Assembly (NCBI GenBank): GCA_965263355.1 | Contig: CBDHHL010000045.1 | Span: forward strand, 38,077-102,076 | Origin: Leptolyngbyaceae cyanobacterium | GTDB taxonomy: Bacteria; Cyanobacteriota; Cyanobacteriia; Phormidesmidales; Phormidesmidaceae | Direction of reading: 5' to 3' | Length of the DNA: 64,000 nt | Shown here: positions 8,956 to 57,043 of the stretch, in pieces | Layout: each line of letters begins with the position of its first letter | Numbering within the stretch: position 1 is the stretch's first letter | Notes under the pieces: generated by a model | Told to the model about the DNA's origin: nothing | The model's input: only the letters and a program-made list of their open reading frames with translations | Database searches by the model: none | Position numbers and translations under genes: made by a program

Positions 8956-10311
8956 ATGAAGATGAAAAAACCCACAAAAATCATCCGTACCGACAAATGG
9001 ACGCTTAATCCAACCACTGAACAGCGCCTGCTGTTTGGTGAAACGATTAAGATCTATCGTCGTGTGTGTCGGTATTTAGTGGGTATTGTCTTTACGCACT
9101 GGCCAGAGCTAGCACCGCTCACGGCAGATGAGAGAACATCAGCGGTTGAGCGTCTAATGCACGCAACCAGCAACCGCCCAGACGTGAAATACCCGCAAAT
9201 CAACCGGGTGTTTCATAAGTTCCCCAGCTACTACCGTAGAGCCGCTATCACTTTCGCGATTGGCCAGGTTAGTAGCTACATGACCCGGTATCGTGACTGG
9301 CAGTGCGGGCAATCTCGCAAACGTCGAGATGCTAAACCCCCATTGCTAAACCCTGATGCTGGGTGCTATCCAGCGCTGTACAAAGGGCAGTGCTACAAGC
9401 TGCATGGCTTAGACAAGGTTGAGATCAAGGTGTTCACCGGGTCTGATTGGGTTTGGACGATGGTTCAAATCACAGGGCTTAGGGATCGCCATGAGATAGC
9501 AGGTAACAAAATGCTGTCACCGTCACTCATTCTCAATGCTAAGTCATGTCATTTATCGGTTCCGTTTCATTGCAAGCCAGTAAAGCGGAACCCTGACAAA
9601 AATGTGGTTGCTGTAGACCTTGGAATAAATACTACAGCTACAGTTTCAGTCGTAACCCATTGCGGTACTGTAATCTATCGTGAATTTATTCACCCTGGAA
9701 GAGACATAGACCGTCGTGACAAACGCCTAAAGTCTGTATCAATGAGAGCCAACAAGACGATGGGGAAAGGCGGCAAACTCCATAAAGGATTTTGCTCTAA
9801 CACCTATCGTAAATGTCGGAACATCAACACCCAGATTGGCCACATCGTTTCTAGGCGAATAGTTAACATAGCCAAAGACCACAACTCTGAAGCTATTGTC
9901 TTTGAGAACTTAAAAGGATGGAAACCTAAGGGCGGCAAAAAGCGCTCTAACCTCCGTCAGCGGTTCCACGGATGGCTCAAAAGCAAGATTCGCGATTATA
10001 CCGAAATGAAGTGGAAGGAACTTGGTGGCAAAGTCATAGATATCGTTGCCGCCTACACTTCGAAGCTTGCTTATGATGGCTCTGGAGTCGTGAAGCGTGA
10101 CTCTAAAAACTACGCTTTAGCAAAATTTTCTTCTGGCAAGCGGTATAACTGCGACCTCAATGGGAGTCAAAACATCGCAGCTAGAGGAATTCTTAAGCTC
10201 ACTGACCGAAAGGATCGTGAGTTCCGCTCTAGCAAAAGTTCTAGACGGAAGCCCGGAAGCTGGGCTTGCTTATGTGACCTGTGGGTTAGGGATAACCTCA
10301 AGTTAGCATAA
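8956..10311 (+). CDS. tnpB: IS200/IS605-family RNA-guided endonuclease TnpB
   Basis: RuvC-I VAVDLGIN, RuvC-II IVFENL, RuvC-III NCDLNGSQNI. Catalytic D/E/D intact; no Cys4 zinc finger. Confidence 0.9.
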   Translation: MKMKKPTKIIRTDKWTLNPTTEQRLLFGETIKIYRRVCRYLVGIVFTHWPELAPLTADERTSAVERLMHATSNRPDVKYPQINRVFHKFPSYYRRAAITFAIGQVSSYMTRYRDWQCGQSRKRRDAKPPLLNPDAGCYPALYKGQCYKLHGLDKVEIKVFTGSDWVWTMVQITGLRDRHEIAGNKMLSPSLILNAKSCHLSVPFHCKPVKRNPDKNVVAVDLGINTTATVSVVTHCGTVIYREFIHPGRDIDRRDKRLKSVSMRANKTMGKGGKLHKGFCSNTYRKCRNINTQIGHIVSRRIVNIAKDHNSEAIVFENLKGWKPKGGKKRSNLRQRFHGWLKSKIRDYTEMKWKELGGKVIDIVAAYTSKLAYDGSGVVKRDSKNYALAKFSSGKRYNCDLNGSQNIAARGILKLTDRKDREFRSSKSSRRKPGSWACLCDLWVRDNLKLA

Positions 10312-46677: not shown

Positions 46678-47370
46678 TTACAATGGCTGATTGTCACTAA
46701 CGACAAACGTAACTAAAGAGTCACGATCAACTGGGTTTAAGTCTCTGCCTAGATTTATCCACAGGGAATCATCAAAAACATATAAATCGGCCCATTGCGC
46801 CATTGTTGCGATTATTCCCATCGCACCTTCGTCTCGCTGAAGCTTCCAACCGTCGCCATTGTCGTCGCTCTGGTGGTCATACCAAAGATTTTTGTTTGAT
46901 GCTCGCCAGTAGTTAATGGCAAACTGTATAACCCGTGGCTTTTCCCTGTTTAAGATCTCTAAATCAGATTCAATCCATGGGAGATATTCTTCTGAATAGC
47001 TAGGGAAATTAATAGTTAAACCGCCAATTGTGCATGTGCGATTAACAATGCCGCTGATACCAGCTATTTCTTGAATAGCAAAAACACTACGCTCTTTGGC
47101 CCACTTTCGATCAAGGTTTCGCTTCCATTCATCCTGCAATCGATGCAGCATTTCGGGAGTTTTTTCGATTTCAAGCAAAGTCAACTCTAGGTCTGTCTTT
47201 TGATGCAGCAATGGGTCAATGTTGCCGGTCGCTTCGCCAAATGCTGCATACAGCCCAGCAGTTGCCAAGGCGTGTATTACGTCGCAATTATGACCGTTGA
47301 TTCGTTGGTGCCATTGAGAGATTCTATCTAGAGTGGCCAATAGTCGAGTGGGTGTGATTTGCTTAGTCAT
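46678..47370 (-). CDS. hypothetical phage protein
   Basis: 230 aa, operonic. Confidence 0.65.
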   Translation of the reverse strand: MTKQITPTRLLATLDRISQWHQRINGHNCDVIHALATAGLYAAFGEATGNIDPLLHQKTDLELTLLEIEKTPEMLHRLQDEWKRNLDRKWAKERSVFAIQEIAGISGIVNRTCTIGGLTINFPSYSEEYLPWIESDLEILNREKPRVIQFAINYWRASNKNLWYDHQSDDNGDGWKLQRDEGAMGIIATMAQWADLYVFDDSLWINLGRDLNPVDRDSLVTFVVSDNQPL

Positions 47371-47372
47371 AA

Positions 47373-48173
47373 CTATGCGACCTCCAATGTTTCAGAATCG
47401 CTCTTTAGCACATCCAGAATTGAGCGATACCAAAAGAGTTGGTCTTTATCTGACCTGCTATTGGTTGAGACTGGCTTGCGATCGCTATAGGGCTTACCTT
47501 TCTCAGTGGCAGACCATTTGTTGTCAATCTTTTCTTGATAGCCCAACGTTGCCAGCATGGTATTAACCGCCTGAGGATTGGGATTGCCTGTTTTGTATTT
47601 GAAACCTAGCTCTTTAGCGATTTGAGTAGGCGTGAGAAGTGCTTCGGCAGACTTGAGAGATGACCGTTCTTTGGCTGGGATCTCTGGAAGCGTAAGTTGT
47701 GGATAGTGCTTTTTTATATTTTGAGCCAAAAGTGACTCTTCGTAAGCTGCCCCATGACGTTTCCCAAGGATAAAAGCAACCTTGTCAATCTCTTCAAGTG
47801 ATGCAGCTGGCAAAGCTGTTTCTATGGTTTGTAGCTCTTTCTCGATAAGCAGTGTTTTAGCTTTTTCAAATGCTTCAACTAAATTAAACTTGCATTCTAC
47901 AACTTGCTCCGTATTTCTACTGAGCGTCATTATCACTGTAGCTTGAGGTTCATTTAGCAAGGCATAAACTGTTTCATTCTTTGCCCCGACAGTGTTTGTT
48001 ACAGTCCCGATTTCAAATCGGAGGTGTCCAAAACGGGACTCAATCAACTCTCTATACTTTCTGACTGTTCGTATAAAACTTTCATGTTTTATGCCTAGCT
48101 GCACTGCTATCAGCCTAGAGTCAACTACTATTTCACCGTCACGATTAAATGCTGTAATATTTGTATCAGCCAT
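47373..48173 (-). CDS. Rha-family phage regulatory/antirepressor protein
   Basis: VVDSRLIA..GIKH, LNEPQAT..SRNTEQVVECKFNLVEAF; C-terminal LTPTQIAKELG..VN.ML...GYQ. Confidence 0.85.
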   Translation of the reverse strand: MADTNITAFNRDGEIVVDSRLIAVQLGIKHESFIRTVRKYRELIESRFGHLRFEIGTVTNTVGAKNETVYALLNEPQATVIMTLSRNTEQVVECKFNLVEAFEKAKTLLIEKELQTIETALPAASLEEIDKVAFILGKRHGAAYEESLLAQNIKKHYPQLTLPEIPAKERSSLKSAEALLTPTQIAKELGFKYKTGNPNPQAVNTMLATLGYQEKIDNKWSATEKGKPYSDRKPVSTNSRSDKDQLFWYRSILDVLKSDSETLEVA

Positions 48174-48262
48174 AGTTTAGCCCTTTTCTAAATTGTGGTT
48201 AAGCAGCTGTCAGCACTTCCAATACTGTCAGCTGCTGCCAATCATAGCATTTCTACTGATGC

Positions 48263-49996
48263 TCAACTAGCTTTAAGCATCTTCAAGCCATTGTTCTTGT
48301 GGTTCTTAGCAGCGTTAGTGTCTGCGTTTTGTTTTTCATTGAATAAATCACATTGTTTATTCAAACAAATAAACGTATCTTGAATAGGTCTAATGCCTTT
48401 CTCCCCACAACAATGACAGCGTTGGGAGGAGTATCTAGCTTCGGCTTCTGTATATGTTTTTCCGGCTTCTTTTAATTTAGATTTTGTCTTAGCTCTAAGA
48501 TCTCCCATGCAAGCTGTTTTCAAAGATCTGTTCAATCCTGCCTTAGCTGCTCTGCCGTTTTGCTCGTAATAACTTCCATCTTCAGCTAATTTAGGCGTTG
48601 TCTGTCTTGCCATGTTAGTTAACGCTGTGGCCTCCCAGGCGATGACATCATAAGTTCTTGCTAACCTGGTTGATAACTTATGATTAAACGCGTTTGAACT
48701 ATTAGCAGCTCGTTCATGCAGCCTGGATATTTTATCTCTAAGTTTTTGCTCGTTATTAGTGGCTTCACGCTGCCCACGCTTCCATATTTGGTCTAGCCGC
48801 TTATCATTTTTTTCAGTCATAATGTCAAGCTTTGATTGCAGCTTTTCAATATGATTTTGTATGCGTTCTCGGCTTTCGTTAGGATTAAATAAATGACCTT
48901 CGTCAGTCGCTACAATTGCCTTAATCCCAGGGTCAATGCCCGCCATATGCCCGGTTCGTTTAGCGCATTTTGAGTCTTCTATTAGCAAGTATGGCAACTC
49001 ATTCTCTATTGACTTTTTCTTGGCTAATGCCGCTTGATATTCTTCACTGTTAGCTAATGCCTTAGTTTGTTCTTTCTTCCCTTTAATGCTATCAAGAACT
49101 TTTTTCTTGATGGCGCTTAAAACTTTCCCTTGATTATTAAGTTTTGCTCTATGTTCTACTTCTGCTTCACTTTGAGCAATTAAGCATAAATAGAAGCCGC
49201 TCGGCTTTAATGTCAACTTATAAGTCTTTGTTACGTAGCCTTCAAGCCTTTTTTTATAGCTGCGATCGCACGGCTCTAAAACTAAGCCTTGACCGTTGAA
49301 TTGTCCTTTTTTGAACGGGATAGTTTTTTGATTATTGTTCAACGTGCTAATTTTACGTTGCTTGCCGTCCTTATGCTTTGGCTGCTTTCTGGCGAGCAGT
49401 TTCCCGTCTAAATAAGCCTTCCAAGCAACTTCAAAGTCAGCTAGTAGCCCTCCAACAAAATCGCTATGGCAAGTTAATTCATCAAGACCCTGAGAACTTC
49501 GTGACGCATTTAGTAACGCCATATTGTCTAGGCCCCAACCTTTTCCTTTTAGCTCGCGGGTTATTGAGGTGCTTTTACTGGAACGGGTTATTGAGGTGCT
49601 TTTACTGGAATAAGAGACTTCGCGATATCTATGACGCTCTGGCTTTATTGGCTCATATGGCTTATCCCCAGCCACTAATTCATAGCCTTGTTTCGTTTTG
49701 CCATCGCCATAGTGAATTAAAGGAGCTTTATCTGATTTCTTAAAATATGGCCCTCCTTTAGCAATCTGACAAGCTGCTCCAATCCATCCGCCATTCTTTG
49801 AAAAGCGTAGCGGCGTTTTAATGCAGCCTGACAAGTCAACGCCTTTTTTTTCGGCCCATTCATACCATTCAAGGCAATGATTATGTAAGGCTACGGCCCT
49901 CACATAGTTCCATAGCCATTCAAGTTCTTTGCAAATTTTCTCGTATTTAATTAGCGTCTCTGGAGTTGGCTGAACTTTTACTTTAATTGTCTTCAT
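48263..49996 (-). CDS. TnpB-derived type V (Cas12f/C2c8-like) RNA-guided nuclease
   Basis: RuvC-I GIDPG, RuvC-II IAWEA, zinc finger CHCC..C..C, RuvC-III NADTNAAKN. 577 aa, next to a CRISPR array, no IS right end seen. Confidence 0.8.
   Translation of the reverse strand: MKTIKVKVQPTPETLIKYEKICKELEWLWNYVRAVALHNHCLEWYEWAEKKGVDLSGCIKTPLRFSKNGGWIGAACQIAKGGPYFKKSDKAPLIHYGDGKTKQGYELVAGDKPYEPIKPERHRYREVSYSSKSTSITRSSKSTSITRELKGKGWGLDNMALLNASRSSQGLDELTCHSDFVGGLLADFEVAWKAYLDGKLLARKQPKHKDGKQRKISTLNNNQKTIPFKKGQFNGQGLVLEPCDRSYKKRLEGYVTKTYKLTLKPSGFYLCLIAQSEAEVEHRAKLNNQGKVLSAIKKKVLDSIKGKKEQTKALANSEEYQAALAKKKSIENELPYLLIEDSKCAKRTGHMAGIDPGIKAIVATDEGHLFNPNESRERIQNHIEKLQSKLDIMTEKNDKRLDQIWKRGQREATNNEQKLRDKISRLHERAANSSNAFNHKLSTRLARTYDVIAWEATALTNMARQTTPKLAEDGSYYEQNGRAAKAGLNRSLKTACMGDLRAKTKSKLKEAGKTYTEAEARYSSQRCHCCGEKGIRPIQDTFICLNKQCDLFNEKQNADTNAAKNHKNNGLKMLKAS
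49557..49610. repeat. perfect 27-bp tandem duplication inside the nuclease gene
   Basis: CGGGTTATTGAGGTGCTTTTACTGGAA twice (SSKSTSITR twice). Confidence 0.95.
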
Positions 49997-50159
49997 TGTT
50001 TTGTGCGTCTATTTTCGGGAGTTCTGGCAGCATATCAATAAAGCGTTCCAATAGGTCAGCGATCGATATATTCCAAAGCTTACAATATTGCTCTAGCTTT
50101 TGTTTGCGACTTTGCTTGATGCGGGCGTAAATCCTGCCTTCTCTATTCTCTTTCCCCAT
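49983..50159 (-). CDS. 58-aa ribbon-helix-helix protein upstream of the nuclease (not in ORF track)
   Basis: MGKENREGRIYARIKQSRKQKLEQYCKLWNISIADLLERFIDMLP; overlaps the nuclease start by 14 nt. Confidence 0.7.
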   Translation of the reverse strand: MGKENREGRIYARIKQSRKQKLEQYCKLWNISIADLLERFIDMLPELPKIDAQNNEDN

Positions 50160-50175
50160 TTATATTAAAAAATGC

Positions 50176-50205
50176 TTGACGTACAAAATCATAGCACGCT
50201 AATAT
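50176..50205 (+). promoter_or_regulatory. promoter for the ncRNA/CRISPR transcript
   Basis: TTGACG-N18-TAATAT. Confidence 0.7.
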
Positions 50206-50211
50206 AAGGAC

Positions 50212-50464
50212 ATCGCAGTTTGGGCGACAAGGCAGCGAAAACGTTGTTGGATGGCTTCAGCGCTAAGGCTCTTTAGGGGGCTATGGGCATCTTTTGTTGG
50301 GAAATCAACAAACACCAGCCGAAAGGCAAGATAGGAGCAAAAGGAGTCCGTAAGGCCCTTATAGATTCGCCGGATCTATGGCGAACAGTCTCATCTTTTT
50401 TTTGGCATCGCTTAGCTTTGCCAAAAAAAACAACCTTGAAAAACAGGGATTAAAGCTTTGGCAG
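50212..50464 (+). ncRNA. putative tracrRNA-like structured RNA
   Basis: Non-coding with several hairpins; ends in anti-repeat AACAGGGATTAAAGCTTTGGCAG (50442-50464), complementary to repeat nt 2-24. Confidence 0.65.
50431..50444 (+). promoter_or_regulatory. boxA-like antitermination motif
   Basis: CAACCTTGAAAAAC resembles cyanobacterial rrn boxA (GAACCTTGAAAA). Confidence 0.55.
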
Positions 50465-50534
50465 GATTGCCATTTTCTGAGCTTTGCCAGAATCGCTCAT
50501 AAAGCCTTGCTGCTAAAGGGATGCAGCTCATGCA

Positions 50535-51020
50535 GCTGCTAAAGCTTTAATCCCTGCTAAGGGACTGAAACTTAGCCCTGATGAGGTTGAGGTTATCCAG
50601 CGAAAACGGCTGCTAAAGCTTTAATCCCTGTTAAGGGACTGAAACTGCTTACTGGTTGGGTTACGACGGTCTGAGGTGTCGCTGCTAAAGCTTTAATCCC
50701 TATTAAGGGGCTGAAACGTAGGGAACTTTAAGCGGGCTGTACTCAGGCTCTGCTGCTAAAGCTTTAATCCCTGCTAAGGGGCTGAAACAAGAGACTGAAA
50801 CTCGTATGCCCTACCAATTTTAACGCGGGCGTGTAAAACTGCTAAAGCTTTAATCCCTGCTAAGAGACTGAAACTTTTCCAAGGGTTATGTCACCCTAGC
50901 ATTAGACGAGGGCTGCTAAAGCTTTAATCCCTGTTAAGGGACTGAAACCGTTGCATAATGTCGGGCTCGCTGAACTCTTCCAGGCTGCTAAAGCTTTAAT
51001 CCCTTAACAGGGACTGAAAC
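50535..51020 (+). CRISPR. CRISPR array, 7 repeats (37 bp) and 6 spacers (34-37 bp)
   Basis: GCTGCTAAAGCTTTAATCCCTGYTAAGGGACTGAAAC at 50535, 50609, 50681, 50752, 50838, 50912, 50984. Confidence 0.97.
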
Positions 51021-52173
51021 TAAGCTCAATATGAGCCATATGATCAGGCTGGCTGTCCGCTATCGATTTCGCTTGTTGCTCAATAAATTCAGCATCAACA
51101 GATATGGGGCACGGCTCAATCTTGACATCAAAGTTATTTATCAACGCTTCATAAACCATCGGATTTATGCCCGTCTCAACATTAATTAGTTCATCCAGCG
51201 AAGCGAAGCTATCAAGACATTGATTGCCTTGATAGTGGCTTCCACAGTCGCCCATAGTCTTTATATGGCGTCCCCCAGCGATGACATTACGGACTACTTG
51301 AGCGGTCGTATCTTTTTCTGTAAATTCGCCCGCGTCACAGGTGCGCGCATTGCCAGCAAGCGTGTTGTTTTTTACGGCATTAATTCGGCTGTCATTCCCC
51401 TTAACAGTATTCAGGCCAATTCCAGACTTGCCATTAAACACGCTGAGATTGTCTTTAATTAGTAGATTGCCCCGGTAGATGCCCGTATCATTTTGGAAAT
51501 GAATGCCGTTCCCTTCATCTAAGGCCATGGTTGCGAAACCCTTAGAGAACACTCGTGAGATTACATTGCATTGGTTTCCAAATACCAGATTCTCAGAGAT
51601 TTCATACAACGTTTCCGGCGGTCCTTTTGGCTGACTATTGGCAATGCCATGGCTGCCGCTAATCGAATACCAGCAATTATGGTAAATGACATTACCTTTA
51701 ATCAGATGAGAGTGCCCATCTTTGTTGGATATTCCCGCCCCTGGAAAATGATGGATCTTACATCCCTGAATTTTGATGTTTGAGCAATTGTTTAATGCGA
51801 TGCCCCGTCCTGTTATTTGAAGCGGCGCATTATGCCACCATAAAGACAATGCATAGTCTAGGTCTAAATCCTGGCTGTGGCCTACAAACTCTATATCACT
51901 GATATAAACGTGATTGGAGTTTTTTATCGCTAAACCATTCACGTCGGATATGACCTTCACAGGGCCATCACCAAACGGCATTATCTTAATTGGAGTTTCG
52001 GCTGTTCCTTTTAGCCCACTAGCAAAAAAAGCATTTCCACGGGTCCGTGTTTCCCATGAAGTGTTGTATTCTTCATGCTGATAAACGCCAGACTTTAGCA
52101 GGATACGATCGCTTGCCTCAACAACTTTAAGCGCACTTTGAAATTGATCTGATGTCTCGATGATGTATCTCAT
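51004..52173 (-). CDS. right-handed parallel beta-helix (pectin lyase-like) protein
   Basis: Repeated I.GN..Y.N / G.GI turns; last codons lie inside CRISPR repeat 7. Confidence 0.85.
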   Translation of the reverse strand: MRYIIETSDQFQSALKVVEASDRILLKSGVYQHEEYNTSWETRTRGNAFFASGLKGTAETPIKIMPFGDGPVKVISDVNGLAIKNSNHVYISDIEFVGHSQDLDLDYALSLWWHNAPLQITGRGIALNNCSNIKIQGCKIHHFPGAGISNKDGHSHLIKGNVIYHNCWYSISGSHGIANSQPKGPPETLYEISENLVFGNQCNVISRVFSKGFATMALDEGNGIHFQNDTGIYRGNLLIKDNLSVFNGKSGIGLNTVKGNDSRINAVKNNTLAGNARTCDAGEFTEKDTTAQVVRNVIAGGRHIKTMGDCGSHYQGNQCLDSFASLDELINVETGINPMVYEALINNFDVKIEPCPISVDAEFIEQQAKSIADSQPDHMAHIELSFSPC

Positions 52174-52176
52174 TGA

Positions 52177-52812
52177 TTAGCTCCCGAAAAAACCTGCATT
52201 ACTTGCATCAAACGCAAAGATAGGACTTGCCCTAATAGACTCCGCAACAGTTTCTTTGTTTGCCATGACTCTATCAAAGCCAAAGGCTACATATCCAAAT
52301 ATATCCCCATTCTGAGCCAATATAGGACAGGAGATAGTTAGCTGAATATTATTTGGTTCTAGCTGCTGTCTCAATAGACCCTCTGGGAGATCCTGAGTAG
52401 GCTTAACCCAGCATTGACCTAACTTATGATAATCAAGTTGCTCTAGATATATGTCCTCTTGCTGGATGTCCAGCCATCCATATGTTGCGGACACAGGCAC
52501 TCCGATCCGTGCGATCGCAAAACTAAAACGTCGACGTTGGTCCTCGTCGTACAAAAATGACCCTACCCATTGAGCGTTCAGCCTATCGCCCATGGAGGTT
52601 ATTACGTCCTCGATGCTTTGTTGATATATAAGGCCTCTAGCAATGCCCTGTGCTATAGAACCAGGCGTTTTGATTTGCAAGCAAGCCTCGCTAAACTGAG
52701 TATGACTCGTCCAGAAAAGAACTAGGCCAAAAAATAACCCAATCGATGCGATTATGCACGCCCGACCCAATTGTGTTCTAAGGAATGGAAACAATGCTCT
52801 ATCGTTTCGCAT
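52177..52812 (-). CDS. membrane protein with GAF/Cache-like sensor domain
   Basis: N-terminal TM; ISCPILAQNGDIFGYVAFGF. Confidence 0.6.
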   Translation of the reverse strand: MRNDRALFPFLRTQLGRACIIASIGLFFGLVLFWTSHTQFSEACLQIKTPGSIAQGIARGLIYQQSIEDVITSMGDRLNAQWVGSFLYDEDQRRRFSFAIARIGVPVSATYGWLDIQQEDIYLEQLDYHKLGQCWVKPTQDLPEGLLRQQLEPNNIQLTISCPILAQNGDIFGYVAFGFDRVMANKETVAESIRASPIFAFDASNAGFFGS

Positions 52813-53545
52813 TAGGAGTTTTGCTATCTATTGACTTTTCATTAGCCATGTCCTTAGCCTTTGATACAATCCCAACAGCTGCACCGGTTGCATTAACGAG
52901 CGCCCCGATCACTAGGATCGTAGCGTCTCTGCCAAAAGACATCAGTTCCGTTGGCACTCGCCTAAAAATACTTAATAAAAATGGGGTCAGATAGAAAAAA
53001 ACACCCGCATAGATCAGCCACTTAACGACAAGTTCTTGTAGCTCAGACTGGCGCAATTGAACTTGCATATCCTTGTTGGACGCTTTTAGTTCTTTATTGG
53101 ATTTCTCCAATTGCAAGATCAAATCTCGTTCCTGTTGCTCTTGCTCCTTTATTTGTTCTTCTTGGCGTAAATATTCTGTGCGGTCTCGAACGACTTCGCC
53201 TACATAGGTTTCTCCTTCGTGATTGACAATAAATAGTCGTAGCCAGATAGGGATCTGTCGTCCCATTCGTGTTTTGCCAAATAGCGGAGCTTCAGAACCC
53301 ATATCACGGGTCCTCTGCCCACGTAGAAACGCGTCATACATTCTGTCATGAGCGCTTTCTGATATAAGAGATTCAGGAACCAAACTGTAGACTTTCAAGC
53401 CAACCATTGCCGTTGGATTTTCGTACTCAAAAAGTCTAGCCGCTGCTGGGTTAGCAAGGACTATTTTGCGTTGTGAATTCCCAAAGATGACGGGATCAGG
53501 ATTGAATTCAAATCCAGCTCTTGCTAATGCTGCGTCAGGCATCAA
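52799..53545 (-). CDS. PAS domain + coiled coil + two C-terminal TM helices
   Basis: IVLANPAAARLFEY..VG..V..LVP..VVRDRTE. Confidence 0.75.
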   Translation of the reverse strand: MMPDAALARAGFEFNPDPVIFGNSQRKIVLANPAAARLFEYENPTAMVGLKVYSLVPESLISESAHDRMYDAFLRGQRTRDMGSEAPLFGKTRMGRQIPIWLRLFIVNHEGETYVGEVVRDRTEYLRQEEQIKEQEQQERDLILQLEKSNKELKASNKDMQVQLRQSELQELVVKWLIYAGVFFYLTPFLLSIFRRVPTELMSFGRDATILVIGALVNATGAAVGIVSKAKDMANEKSIDSKTPNAKR

Positions 53546-53609
53546 ATTAAACCATTTTTAGTTCAATAATCCATAGTCTCTCTATTATCACACCCTGGTT
53601 TTCAGAAGA

Positions 53610-55604
53610 TTAAGCCACTAGGACAATGAGCACATAGCCCTGGCCGCCGTTACCTCCTGACGCATCTACAGTACCATCTGAACCGGTACCACCGCCGCCA
53701 CCGGCACCTGGTCCCGAACCATCACTAGCCGGATTCGTAGTGCCTCCAAAGTTGCCCCCCTTACCTCCGGCTCCAAAGGCGTTAGGGTTATCTTTATCAG
53801 GGATCACGACGCCATTGCCAGCGCCACCACCAGGGATACCAAACGCCGTTGGACCGGACCCCCCGCTGGCTGATCCTCCCCCACTGCCGGAACCCGGACC
53901 CCCGTTACTTGTGCCCCCTTGAGACTGGGTAGCCCCCAGCTGTCCATTAGGTAACGCGCTGGCTCCGTTGCCCCCTTGGGAACCATTACGATAGACGATG
54001 CCAGGAATACTAGAGCTGCCGTTCCCCCCTGGACCACCTAACCCTCCGGCTATGTCTACAGTATCAACGGTGGATGTCTGGCCAGCAGCACCCCCAACAC
54101 CGCCCCTAAGCGTTATGGCATCAAACGGCCCTACAGCATCTATGGTTACTTGGCCTCCAGATGAACCGTTAGAGTTTGCAGATCCACCAAGGCCAGGATT
54201 GCCGATAGTCCCGGTTATCGTTTGCCCTTGCAGTGATAGCGGAAATGCCTGCACCAGTTCTAAAGAATCTCCTGAGCCACCGCCGCCGCCGCCAGACTTA
54301 CCGTTACTATAGTCACTTTGAGCGCCACCGCCACCGCCACCACCGGGAGCTGAGGCATATAATCTAAACTCGCTATAAGTGTTGACCGGCACTGTGAAAC
54401 TAAATGGCCCTGGAGTATTAAATAACATAATCTCATCAGATGTCGCTGGGGCACTAAGGCTCAAGTCTTCAAAAACAAAAAAGACATATCCCCTGGCTCC
54501 CGATCCTCCCCTGGGAGAGATACCCGTATTGCCGGGTGCTCCTGGGCCACCTCCTCCTCCGGCTCCTCTTAGTTCTCCTGATTGAGCCCTCAAGAACAAC
54601 CGAGCATTGCCCCCGTCACCACCATCACCATAGACTCTCGGGTTATCTTGCGTTATCTCCTGAGCACTATTAGAACCGGATGCCCCGGTTGCAACGTTAG
54701 CCGGAAATAAGTTTCCCGATGAATGAGCGCCGCCGCCGCCGCCCGCAGTGCCTCCGGAAGACGCCCCATTGCCAGGAGTGTTATTAGTGTTGGCTATCCC
54801 CCGAGCGCCATTGCCTCCCCTACCACCGGGAATAGTGACTAGTGATGCGAAGCCCTCGGTAACTTGGCCCCCTGCTCCCCCTTGAGGGTTTGTCAGGCTA
54901 GCATGTTGCCCCCCAGAGCCACCGCGAGCAAGGATCCTCGGAAAGTTACCCCAGGCATTAATAATAGTGCTTCTCCCGCTGCCCCCTGGTGTCGGGCCAC
55001 CATCACCTCCGGACCCTGCGCTCCCCCCAGACCCTACAGAACCGGTAACACTTTGGCCCCTTAAATCAGTCCCATAGGGCCAACGTACAAGCTCAAAAGC
55101 AGCGCCACCCCCGCCACCTCCGCCCCCTGAAAGAATAGAAAAAGAGAACGTGTTAAACTGGCCACCCCCGCCACCTCCGCCTCCGGCTACCCCGTATATC
55201 GACATATGAGTGTGGGGATAGGTAGGCGTAGTGAAGGAAAAGCTTCCGGCTGTCTCGAATAAGAAAAGCTCAGTCCGAGCCTCGATCTCTAACACCGGTA
55301 ACGGCTGAGTGAAGCTAGATCCATCGGATAACGTAATCACATAAGACGGATAATAGGTTCCTGGAGAATAAATATGCGATATCGCATAGGGAGAGATAAC
55401 CGGTTTAAGTCCGCTAGAATCTCCTGGATTAAATTGTATAGCGGTTACCGAGACACTAACCCCTATGTTAAATAATTGTAGATTGTACTCTCTAGCGGAA
55501 TCTGTAGACTGGTCAAATGCATGATAGACATGGGTTTGAGCAACATCAGACTCATTGAGGCTAGGATACTCCGCGAGTCCTTGAAGATAGCGAATAACGC
55601 CCAT
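53610..55604 (-). CDS. glycine-rich tail fibre-like protein with PKD-like domain
   Basis: Two F.T.G.FSFT.P + GGGGGG modules; SHIYSPGTY. Confidence 0.75.
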   Translation of the reverse strand: MGVIRYLQGLAEYPSLNESDVAQTHVYHAFDQSTDSAREYNLQLFNIGVSVSVTAIQFNPGDSSGLKPVISPYAISHIYSPGTYYPSYVITLSDGSSFTQPLPVLEIEARTELFLFETAGSFSFTTPTYPHTHMSIYGVAGGGGGGGGQFNTFSFSILSGGGGGGGGAAFELVRWPYGTDLRGQSVTGSVGSGGSAGSGGDGGPTPGGSGRSTIINAWGNFPRILARGGSGGQHASLTNPQGGAGGQVTEGFASLVTIPGGRGGNGARGIANTNNTPGNGASSGGTAGGGGGAHSSGNLFPANVATGASGSNSAQEITQDNPRVYGDGGDGGNARLFLRAQSGELRGAGGGGGPGAPGNTGISPRGGSGARGYVFFVFEDLSLSAPATSDEIMLFNTPGPFSFTVPVNTYSEFRLYASAPGGGGGGGAQSDYSNGKSGGGGGGSGDSLELVQAFPLSLQGQTITGTIGNPGLGGSANSNGSSGGQVTIDAVGPFDAITLRGGVGGAAGQTSTVDTVDIAGGLGGPGGNGSSSIPGIVYRNGSQGGNGASALPNGQLGATQSQGGTSNGGPGSGSGGGSASGGSGPTAFGIPGGGAGNGVVIPDKDNPNAFGAGGKGGNFGGTTNPASDGSGPGAGGGGGTGSDGTVDASGGNGGQGYVLIVLVA

Positions 55605-57043
55605 TAAATAGACTCCTGCTCTAGCCTAATGGTTTTATCTGAGGCGGTGACTATGCTGATTATCCCTAAGTCATAGTCTCGTATAGTCACTCCCGGAGCC
55701 GGATTAGGGTTCGCTAACGCTAATCTAAAACCAGGGTCCAGGGTCACCGCTACTTCGGCAAATTTCATATCCATGAGATTAACAAAGGTCTGACCGTTTA
55801 GAAACGTTTTAACGCTTCCCGCCTGGTCCAAAGAGACTACATGGGTAGTAGGGGCTGTTAATCCGGTCTCAACCAGTGTAAAAAACTCGGCCTTTACTAA
55901 AACTACCTGATAAGATCCCCCTCGCCTGAAAATGATATCTCCCACCGAGAGATCGGTTTGTGCCCGGTCGTACTCCACGTCTATATGACCGTTGTTATAG
56001 ACCAACGATAGATATGGGGTACTGGGGTCTGCAGTAAGATCCTGCAAGTCACTAAAGAGATAGGGATTGTTAGCCGATAGAAACGCCTTATAGATAAAAA
56101 GGGCATGGGTAGCTAGAGACAGGTCAACCGCTGTCCCATTGCCCATGCTGATGGGAGATTCAGTCCCCGATGTACCCAAAGTCACATTCCCAGTCCACTG
56201 GAAAAACGATGTCAGTCCTTGGAAGCTGAGGCTGCTTGATGGGACTTCAGCGCCTGCTGATTCCCTAACCCAGCCTGTCCCATCGTTATAAAGCTTAAGC
56301 CCTTGAGATTCAGTTAAGCTTGCGTTTGTGTAAAGTGTTCCGTCGACGGTAACAGCGCTGTTTGGAGGGATAATCGCGTCAACTTTTTTGGCTGTATTTA
56401 TATTTGTCGTCAGTGGGTAAGTTCCCCCGTTCTGCAGATAACCAATGGACGCATAGCCCAGCGTTGCACCGTCCAGCTGTTGAGTGATTTCTTTTCCATC
56501 GTCCTCCGTAACAAACGTGTCCCAATCTGCCGCTGCGAAAGGCCCCGGTGGGTCAAGGCTCGCCTTATTTGCCGTGTAAAGCGTGCCTCCATGAAAGACC
56601 TGAGCACCCGTGAGATAACCCCCCACTAGCGCTGGATCGTATCCGTCAGGAATCTCCGGTAAAAGTGCCGCCAGTTTATCCTCTTGGGAGTCAGGAACCT
56701 CGTTTGCAGTAAACGCGTCAGAATGCCATCTGTTATCCTCTGTACTCCAGCTCGCAAATGTCCGGGTAGTGACGCTTTCATTATTTACAACATAACGCCT
56801 CTGTCCGTCTGTAATTGGGTCTGTTTCAATTGTCCAGATCGTTCCATTACTGCTGACTACATAATCTCGATCTGTTGCTGCAATTATGAGCGTATTGCCG
56901 TTATTGGCTGTCGCTGGATAGGTAGCAGATATCGCAGCGATCGCGGCAGCGCTACCCGTGGCTGCAACCACCGTGCGATCTTGTACGGTTGTTGCGAGTG
57001 TATCCGTGGATGAGGTTGGGGTTTGTCGTCTGATGATAGGCAT
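55604..57043 (-). CDS. putative tail fibre protein with carbohydrate-binding-like module
   Basis: YLTGAQVFHGGTLYTA..W; overlapped operon. Confidence 0.6.
   Translation of the reverse strand: MPIIRRQTPTSSTDTLATTVQDRTVVAATGSAAAIAAISATYPATANNGNTLIIAATDRDYVVSSNGTIWTIETDPITDGQRRYVVNNESVTTRTFASWSTEDNRWHSDAFTANEVPDSQEDKLAALLPEIPDGYDPALVGGYLTGAQVFHGGTLYTANKASLDPPGPFAAADWDTFVTEDDGKEITQQLDGATLGYASIGYLQNGGTYPLTTNINTAKKVDAIIPPNSAVTVDGTLYTNASLTESQGLKLYNDGTGWVRESAGAEVPSSSLSFQGLTSFFQWTGNVTLGTSGTESPISMGNGTAVDLSLATHALFIYKAFLSANNPYLFSDLQDLTADPSTPYLSLVYNNGHIDVEYDRAQTDLSVGDIIFRRGGSYQVVLVKAEFFTLVETGLTAPTTHVVSLDQAGSVKTFLNGQTFVNLMDMKFAEVAVTLDPGFRLALANPNPAPGVTIRDYDLGIISIVTASDKTIRLEQESI

Follow-up and report, generated by a model that had tools for sequence, protein, structure and literature searches.

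Results

Phage and locus

The window, i.e. the whole stretch of DNA analysed (64 kb), carries genes for a DNA polymerase fragment, a primase, a Dda-like helicase, an endolysin and a minor tail protein, which are phage functions of replication, lysis and tail. Records place the locus proteins on a single contig of 102,076 bp and those of its relatives on contigs of about 90-102 kb, so that the window corresponds to about two thirds of a tailed phage genome of roughly 100 kb. No tRNA genes were found in the 64-kb window, and neither cas1 nor cas2 was seen in it. Searches of the GenBank phages with the 5-kb locus, the array and the beta-helix protein returned no near relative. The primase gave only distant actinophage matches in tblastn (28% identity), from which the host cannot be named. 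As hints to the host only, homologues of the effector described below bear Nostocales names, and the phage records nearest to that effector (32-33% identity) infect Cylindrospermopsis and Aphanizomenon.

The features of the locus are listed here by position in the window and strand, with the evidence for each in brackets.

48253..48270, minus strand: stranded native 3' end of the beta-helix gene, LVEHQ* (translation; far side of the cassette)
48263..49996, minus strand: cas12p, type V-P effector of 577 aa (match to PDB 9jfs 'Cas12p', E 1.5e-111)
48271..51025, no strand: cassette of 2,755 nt, present or absent among relatives (joint 48270 to 51026)
49983..50159, minus strand: 58-aa ORF, upstream of and overlapping the cas12p start (ORF list, translation)
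50176..50230, both strands: putative divergent overlapping sigma-70-like promoters (consensus matches only)
50212..50478, plus strand: predicted tracrRNA, both ends inferred (5' motif, anti-repeat, hairpin and T run)
50536..51020, plus strand: CRISPR array of 7 repeats of 36 nt ending in GAAAC, with 6 spacers (repeat search)
50875..50912, plus strand: spacer 5, predicted guide against the P0007-type allele (array and allele match)
51004..52173, minus strand: tail-module right-handed beta-helix gene, 389 aa (Pfam Beta_helix and NosD just below cut-offs)
51512..51552, minus strand: resident diverged counterpart of the protospacer (51549-51512) with GTG in the PAM position (51552-51550) (27/38 identity)

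Components of the Cas12p cassette

The effector aligns with chain A of 9jfs through its residues 1-57 and 51-570, which indicates homology over the whole length, and its ORF also matches Pfam Cas12f1-like_TNB and OrfB_IS605. The RuvC triad is intact. Residues D355, E455 and D559 align with chain residues 506, 606 and 710, which are the published catalytic residues D378, E478 and D582 (bioRxiv 10.1101/2025.01.20.633832) plus an offset of 128 that we read from the alignment. The CHCC and C..C motifs of the zinc finger are conserved in the alignment to 9jfs as well. The final 8 nt of the ORF, including the stop codon, lie outside the cassette in the flank, in the stranded remnant. The 58-aa ORF had no match in Pfam, PHROG or NCBIfam, and the exact protein occurs on only 2 contigs of the protein collection.

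We infer that the system is expressed. The putative plus-strand promoter, TTGACG-18-TAATAT (50176-50205), would drive the tracrRNA, and its minus-strand counterpart, TTGTCG-18-TATATT (50230-50201), would drive the 58-aa ORF and cas12p. At its 5' end the predicted tracrRNA carries the motif CGCAGTTTGGGCG (GTTTG at 50218-50222), which recurs upstream of the arrays of L004 and L005, two Cas12p loci from IMG/VR. The available text of the Cas12p preprint describes a tracrRNA in which UUUG pairs with the terminal AAAC of the repeat, with a conserved pseudoknot (10.1101/2025.01.20.633832). The anti-repeat (50444-50464) is complementary to the start of the repeat at 20 of 21 positions, with a duplex energy of -43.2 kcal/mol compared to -20.9 +/- 3.4 kcal/mol for shuffled repeats. 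After the anti-repeat there is a hairpin and then a T run (50459-50472). An Rfam scan gave no match above gathering scores.

In the array, the last repeat has an altered loop, and the interval of 50 nt after repeat 4 opens with a 13-nt partial copy of the repeat end. The orientation of cas12p is inverted relative to the tracrRNA and array, so that the gene points away from them, unlike in the Cas12p loci L004-L006. Judged by its components, the locus appears to be a complete phage-borne type V-P system with every part for interference present and intact, since it has an effector with an intact triad, a tracrRNA with an anti-repeat, and repeats ending in AAAC.

Insertion site and polymorphism

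The cassette is inserted five codons before the stop codon of the beta-helix gene, and the last five codons and stop of the resident gene now lie in the terminal CRISPR repeat. The resident protein ends in SFSPC*, whereas all four other members of its 90% cluster end in LVEHQ*; the window has the sole repeat-encoded C-terminus. The stranded LVEHQ* matches exactly the C-terminal residues of the related proteins P0004, P0028, P0029 and P0030. Imperfect direct repeats flank the cassette: AACTAGC (48265-48271) and AACTAAGC (51018-51025).

We used three public sequencing runs of one study, possibly including the sample from which the window was assembled. The runs contain 51-63% of the sampled words of 47300-56000, and their contigs were aligned to 48200-53600 at a likeness of at least 80%. 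Each of the three runs has one contig that skips the 2,755 nt of the cassette, passing from 48270 to 51026 with one intervening letter (depths 34.8, 78.4 and 45.5). Read on the minus strand this junction gives ...MAHIELVEHQ*, i.e. the native C-terminus is restored in the form that has no cassette. Arrays in the runs differ in the spacers that follow repeats 1 and 2, as indicated by loose ends behind 50576 and 50646, and one array has an additional unit at the far end.

Spacer 5 and the resident allele

We count spacer 5 as 38 nt, including a last G that is shared with the target; the borders of an earlier note on this DNA give 37 nt. Its best match outside the array is at 51549-51512 on the minus strand, with 27 of 38 identical positions (equal to 26 of 37). 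This reproduces what the earlier note had reported, namely a match of 26/37 to the neighbouring beta-helix gene with 8 of 11 mismatches at third codon positions. The mismatches are at positions 3, 6, 14, 15, 17, 18, 22, 24, 27, 33 and 36, the match is in the frame of the beta-helix gene, and the remaining three mismatches fall on second (2) and first (1) codon positions. Spacer 5 translates to FSKGYVTLALDE and the resident site to FSKGFATMALDE.

Could the match be a chance resemblance, or could a partially matching guide regulate the phage's own gene? The number of identical bases, taken by itself, exceeds chance only moderately. Spacer 5 was shuffled 300 times by mononucleotide; the best matches of the shuffled versions to the window had 21-26 identical positions, and none of the 300 reached the observed 27. 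The other five spacers, for which no target was found in the window, had 20-22 matches of 35-38 there at most, and the 50-nt interval had 29 of 50. Chance is nevertheless implausible because the match is in frame and in the adjacent gene, GTG stands directly before it, and the spacer peptide is identical to that of a database allele (see below). As for regulation, 6 of the 11 mismatches lie within the first 20 nt of the guide, and binding would not be expected. The seed requirements of Cas12 guides disfavour binding with multiple early mismatches. For the same site, with 11 of 38 positions mismatched including positions 3 and 6 on the PAM side, we infer that the resident allele should escape cutting, in agreement with the earlier note, which had considered it too diverged to be cut.

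The GTG fits the GTN PAM published for Cas12p (10.1101/2025.01.20.633832), and it stands directly before the match both in the resident allele and in the target contigs described below; this is a fit at one protospacer. GTN is a valine codon that is conserved across all alleles. If the array is read from the opposite strand, the target is flanked by TTT instead, so the PAM fit alone does not fix the orientation of the array.

The targeted allele in sibling phages

Homologues of the beta-helix protein carry PF13229, PF22842 and PF05048, and the genes upstream of the resident gene are tail-like. The structure model of the protein is poor (mean pLDDT 48.6), and its profile had weak matches only among PDB sequences (tailspikes, E 0.01; alginate lyase, E 0.018). 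In a collection of 5.8 billion proteins, its relatives, which come from ENA and NCBI assemblies and were compared as proteins, form four close groups with 94, 89, 80 and 59% identity. The P0007 group, which is 59% identical to the resident protein, is the only one with FSKGYVTLALDEG, the exact translation of spacer 5, and this peptide is present in all seven full-length proteins of the P0007 cluster. When P0007 was compared to the window with tblastn, its residues 209-221 matched the spacer at 50875-50913 in 13 of 13 positions. As a control we compared the 21 open frames of the six spacers to 129 proteins. Spacer 5 had 12 of 12 identical residues, and the others had 7 of 12 at most.

The P0007 group is an allele of the resident gene and not a paralogue, for three reasons. 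First, contigs of either allele type encode neighbouring tail proteins of 211 aa and 664 aa that are at least 90% identical. Second, the similarity of the two alleles falls along the protein: they have 82-88 of the first 99 residues in common, about 59-61 per 100 in the middle and only 24-27 of the last 81. Third, the sole contig with both allele types (165,173 bp) has two copies of both neighbours, as if two genomes had been joined. A conserved N-terminus with a variable body resembles a receptor-binding, tail-fibre or tailspike protein whose distal part may have been swapped. Separately, we considered whether the spacer might target a paralogue on the same contig, in the 38 kb outside the window, and rejected this, as no P0007-cluster protein is recorded on the 102,076-bp contig.

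The public runs contain the target itself. Contigs of two of the runs, X2 and X3, cover 50875-50912 alone, and their loose ends fall precisely on the two borders of the spacer. In a manual translation in the spacer frame, the 30 letters before the match in these target contigs read GNQCCVISRV and the 19 letters after it (G)NGIHFQ, identical to P0007. A perfect protospacer in the sibling contigs is likely, though an alignment threshold of 80% and a list of 40 of the 528 differences leave room for mismatches within the 38 bases. The claim of the earlier note that the spacer came from a related phage's allele of the flanking gene is thus borne out by the peptide (12/12 in P0007) and by the flanks of the contigs of runs X2 and X3, which encode that allele. 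The peptide identity to an independent allele, compared to a background of 7/12 at most, and the target contigs with matching flanks also argue against chance resemblance and own-gene regulation, and we consider both very improbable.

On six of the seven contigs with the targeted allele there is also a Cas12p of the 95% or the 84% cluster (84-95% identical), where contigs were equated by the same length in bp; the seventh is a 39.6-kb fragment. This departs from the earlier note, which had expected the targets in phages that have no cassette. No Cas12p of the 84% and 95% clusters was found on the P0004-type contigs of 96,382, 55,364 and 90,077 bp or on the P0005- and P0006-type contigs, all of which have untargeted alleles.

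Further database searches

The exact sequence of spacer 5 was not found in IMG/VR. A degenerate pattern of a GTN codon followed by the spacer peptide was not found in IMG/VR or the JGI metagenomes, and neither was the alignment of the beta-helix proteins. The latter gave one 35%-identical fragment only in the GTDB genomes, in an actinomycete MAG. The repeat was not found in IMG/VR, the whole array had no match in the GenBank phages, and spacers 1, 2 and 6 (first 28 nt of each) had no match in IMG/VR. The IMG/VR, JGI, GTDB and GenBank phage collections seem to lack this phage group. All spacers were also compared to all loci using blastn, which gave background and shared-array matches only. In the more distant Cas12p loci L004 and L005 (about 21 kb each), none of the 17 spacers shows a diverged match to the surrounding locus.

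Discussion

Exclusion, homing or relic

The reading that we favour, and consider probable, is that spacer 5 serves the exclusion of sibling phages, in that the carrier cuts the P0007-type allele in a shared cell. The spacer would have been acquired from a P0007-type allele of siblings such as those found in the same samples. In a shared cell, Cas12p with its tracrRNA and crRNA 5 would recognise GTG and the protospacer in the sibling gene and cut it, and the cut would exclude the sibling phage or at least penalise it. The carrier's own allele would escape owing to its differences at 11 of 38 positions, the PAM-adjacent positions 3 and 6 among them. How the spacer was acquired can be suggested only indirectly because the window has no cas1 or cas2. 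It counts against exclusion that a target was identified for only one of the six spacers, and that none of the 17 spacers of L004 and L005 shows a comparable match. It is also not obvious how an encounter would end, because the targeted siblings mostly carry a near-identical Cas12p.

The earlier note had proposed either homing, in the manner of free-standing homing endonucleases, or a simple exclusion of relatives. Simple exclusion fits best; forms that have no cassette do exist, so that homing retains a low probability. In homing, the rival allele would be cut roughly 0.5 kb away from where the cassette is inserted, and recombinational repair on the carrier genome would copy the cassette and the linked allele into the rival. 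Several observations are consistent with this. The cassette sits within the very gene that is targeted in rivals, 487 nt from the site. Its presence or absence is a clean polymorphism in all three runs, in which the form that has no cassette restores LVEHQ*. The resident site would be immune, and the tail-side flanks are at least 90% identical between allele types and could provide homology for repair. The proximity of target and array has also been noted, and left unexplained in the available text, for SPV1 and SPV2 (PMC6858448). However, six of the seven contigs with the targeted allele already carry Cas12p (as equated by the same length in bp) and the seventh is only a 39.6-kb fragment, whereas the contigs that have no Cas12p of those clusters carry untargeted allele types. 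One of the six spacers only is directed at the neighbourhood. To the left of the cassette lies a Rha-like gene for which no other contig has a relative at the 90% level, and the homology for repair on that side is therefore doubtful. No recombinant with a conversion tract was seen. We favour exclusion over homing because of the Cas12p in six of the seven targets, the untargeted alleles in phages that have no cassette, the single local spacer of six, and the 0 of 17 spacers in L004 and L005, and we regard homing as unlikely. A related idea, that the array was inserted by recombination between spacer and protospacer, was rejected since the junction is 487 nt from the site.

It is also conceivable that the array, or spacer 5 alone, is a relic, captured by recombination from another element or a host array and tolerated with no present role. 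The window has no adaptation genes cas1 or cas2, and the place of spacer 5, last but one and close to the degenerate terminal repeat, makes it old. The arrays in the runs differ at their leader-side spacers, and phage mini-arrays have been proposed in the literature to gain spacers by recombination. Against such a relic, all parts for interference appear intact, the samples themselves contain the target allele with a PAM that fits, and the repeats around spacer 5 are well kept. We find this reading improbable and retain the exclusion of siblings as the probable role of spacer 5.

Significance

The locus is a new case of a virus-borne CRISPR system in interviral conflict, a kind already described. 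For the recently described Cas12p, the available text names no natural target, and the locus supplies a natural protospacer with a PAM that matches the laboratory PAM. The evidence points to a tail gene of variable sequence, carried by siblings in the same samples, as the target, and the exact insertion site of the cassette is known with siblings that have no cassette alongside, so the proposed phage-versus-phage role becomes directly testable at this locus. It also provides a concrete case for an older unexplained pattern, in which virus-borne spacers tend to target genes adjacent to the array. Should the cassette be a portable RNA-guided homing element in the 3' end of a receptor-binding-type tail gene, which we doubt, it would amount to a natural, reprogrammable gene drive of viruses, guided by RNA and fixing a host-range allele as well.

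Comparison with known systems

The free-standing homing endonucleases of T-even phages (Seg and Mob types) are nucleases whose gene lies beside or within a conserved gene and which cut the rival allele nearby. Sequence differences shield the resident allele from the nuclease, and the element is present in some relatives and absent in others. The cassette is similar in lying in or near the gene that would be cut, in the presumed immunity of the resident allele and in the empty sites of the population. It differs in that its recognition is RNA-guided and reprogrammable and in that the carriers of the target mostly have a cassette already.

Cyanophage vB_AphaS-CL131, a phage of about 100 kb, has a type V-U2 locus with a TnpB-like effector and 36-nt repeats and no adaptation genes (PMC6293099). 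The available text of that report gives as the sole spacer match a cyanobacterial primase pseudogene with 4 mismatches, and no tracrRNA was found (PMC6293099). The phage of the window resembles CL131 in genome size, in a TnpB-like effector beside an array of 36-nt repeats, and in the lack of adaptation genes. The Cas12p of the window has 32% identity to the CL131 'transposase' over 39% of the query and scores 171 bits against NCBIfam C2c8, below the cut-off of 350, and the CL131 effector is shorter.

In the archaeal viruses SPV1 and SPV2 and in phage mini-arrays, spacers hit close relatives in the same population (PMC6858448, PMC11656645). For SPV1 and SPV2, the available text states that the orthologous site of the carrier is mutated and that targets lie near the array, a proximity for which it gives no explanation (PMC6858448). 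The same three features are seen here: a spacer that matches a sibling of the same population, a mutated site in the carrier, and a target near the array. Unlike SPV1, SPV2 and the phage mini-arrays, which as far as described have 1-2 spacers, no cas genes and a host effector, the phage of the window brings its own effector and tracrRNA. A further difference from SPV1 and SPV2 is that the targeted gene itself is interrupted at its 3' end by the cassette.

The closest comparison is to the Cas12p systems themselves ('Cas12 hacker', type V-P), which are phage-borne, with effectors of 500-700 aa encoded near tail genes (bioRxiv 10.1101/2025.01.20.633832), and for which a journal version (Nat Microbiol 2026) is cited in PMC13728456. 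The preprint describes activation by host thioredoxin. In its available text the hosts are given as undetermined and the natural target is unnamed, with the systems 'possibly targeting rival nucleic acids' (10.1101/2025.01.20.633832). The locus of the window agrees with these systems in its homologous 577-aa effector, phage-borne beside tail genes, in its tracrRNA and in the AAAC end of its repeats, and the published GTN PAM agrees with the GTG at the natural target. Unlike in the available text of the preprint, a natural protospacer, its target gene, the insertion site of the cassette and its polymorphism are identified here.

Cassette borders

The cassette, which carries cas12p and the CRISPR array within a tailed phage, has the following genes in its surroundings.

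47373-48173, minus strand: Rha/antirepressor-like gene, left of the cassette
52799-53545, minus strand: PAS-domain protein of 248 aa, encoded in the tail module; relative to the beta-helix gene it lies two genes upstream

Relatives of the Rha/antirepressor-like gene at 90% were found on no other contig of the protein collection, and the tail genes to the right of the cassette are common to many contigs. This places the cassette where a conserved module meets a variable one. Within the tail module, no sequence identical to the PAS-domain protein was present in the protein collection. Directly downstream of the LVEHQ* remnant, the native 3' end of the beta-helix gene stranded beyond the cassette, there is an inverted repeat around CAGCTG (48190-48240). 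It looks like the original terminator of the tail operon, which would now lie behind cas12p.

Length variation in cas12p and the array

The members of the Cas12p cluster are 577, 583 or 591 aa long. The gene contains a perfect 27-nt tandem duplication (49557-49610), by which SKSTSITR is encoded twice, and contigs from three public runs of one study have a 34-letter insertion in the cas12p region (49851-49858). Sibling phages thus differ in the length of the effector's N-terminal half. In the array, the 'spacer' behind repeat 4 measures 50 nt because the first 13 nt of the interval partially duplicate the end of the repeat (AAGAGACTGAAAC, 50789-50801), which suggests a slipped or recombined array unit.

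Other loci

8956-10311, plus strand: second TnpB-like ORF in the window, 451 aa (PHROG 'transposase', E 1.2e-21), distant from the CRISPR array
L005 12155-14949 and L006 12155-13843 (IMG/VR phage contigs): two adjacent arrays with differing repeats, directly after the Cas12p gene

The Cas12p preceding these double arrays is 37%-related. Their repeats end in TTGAAAC in one array and GGTTTCACC in the other, the second array having up to 28 repeats.
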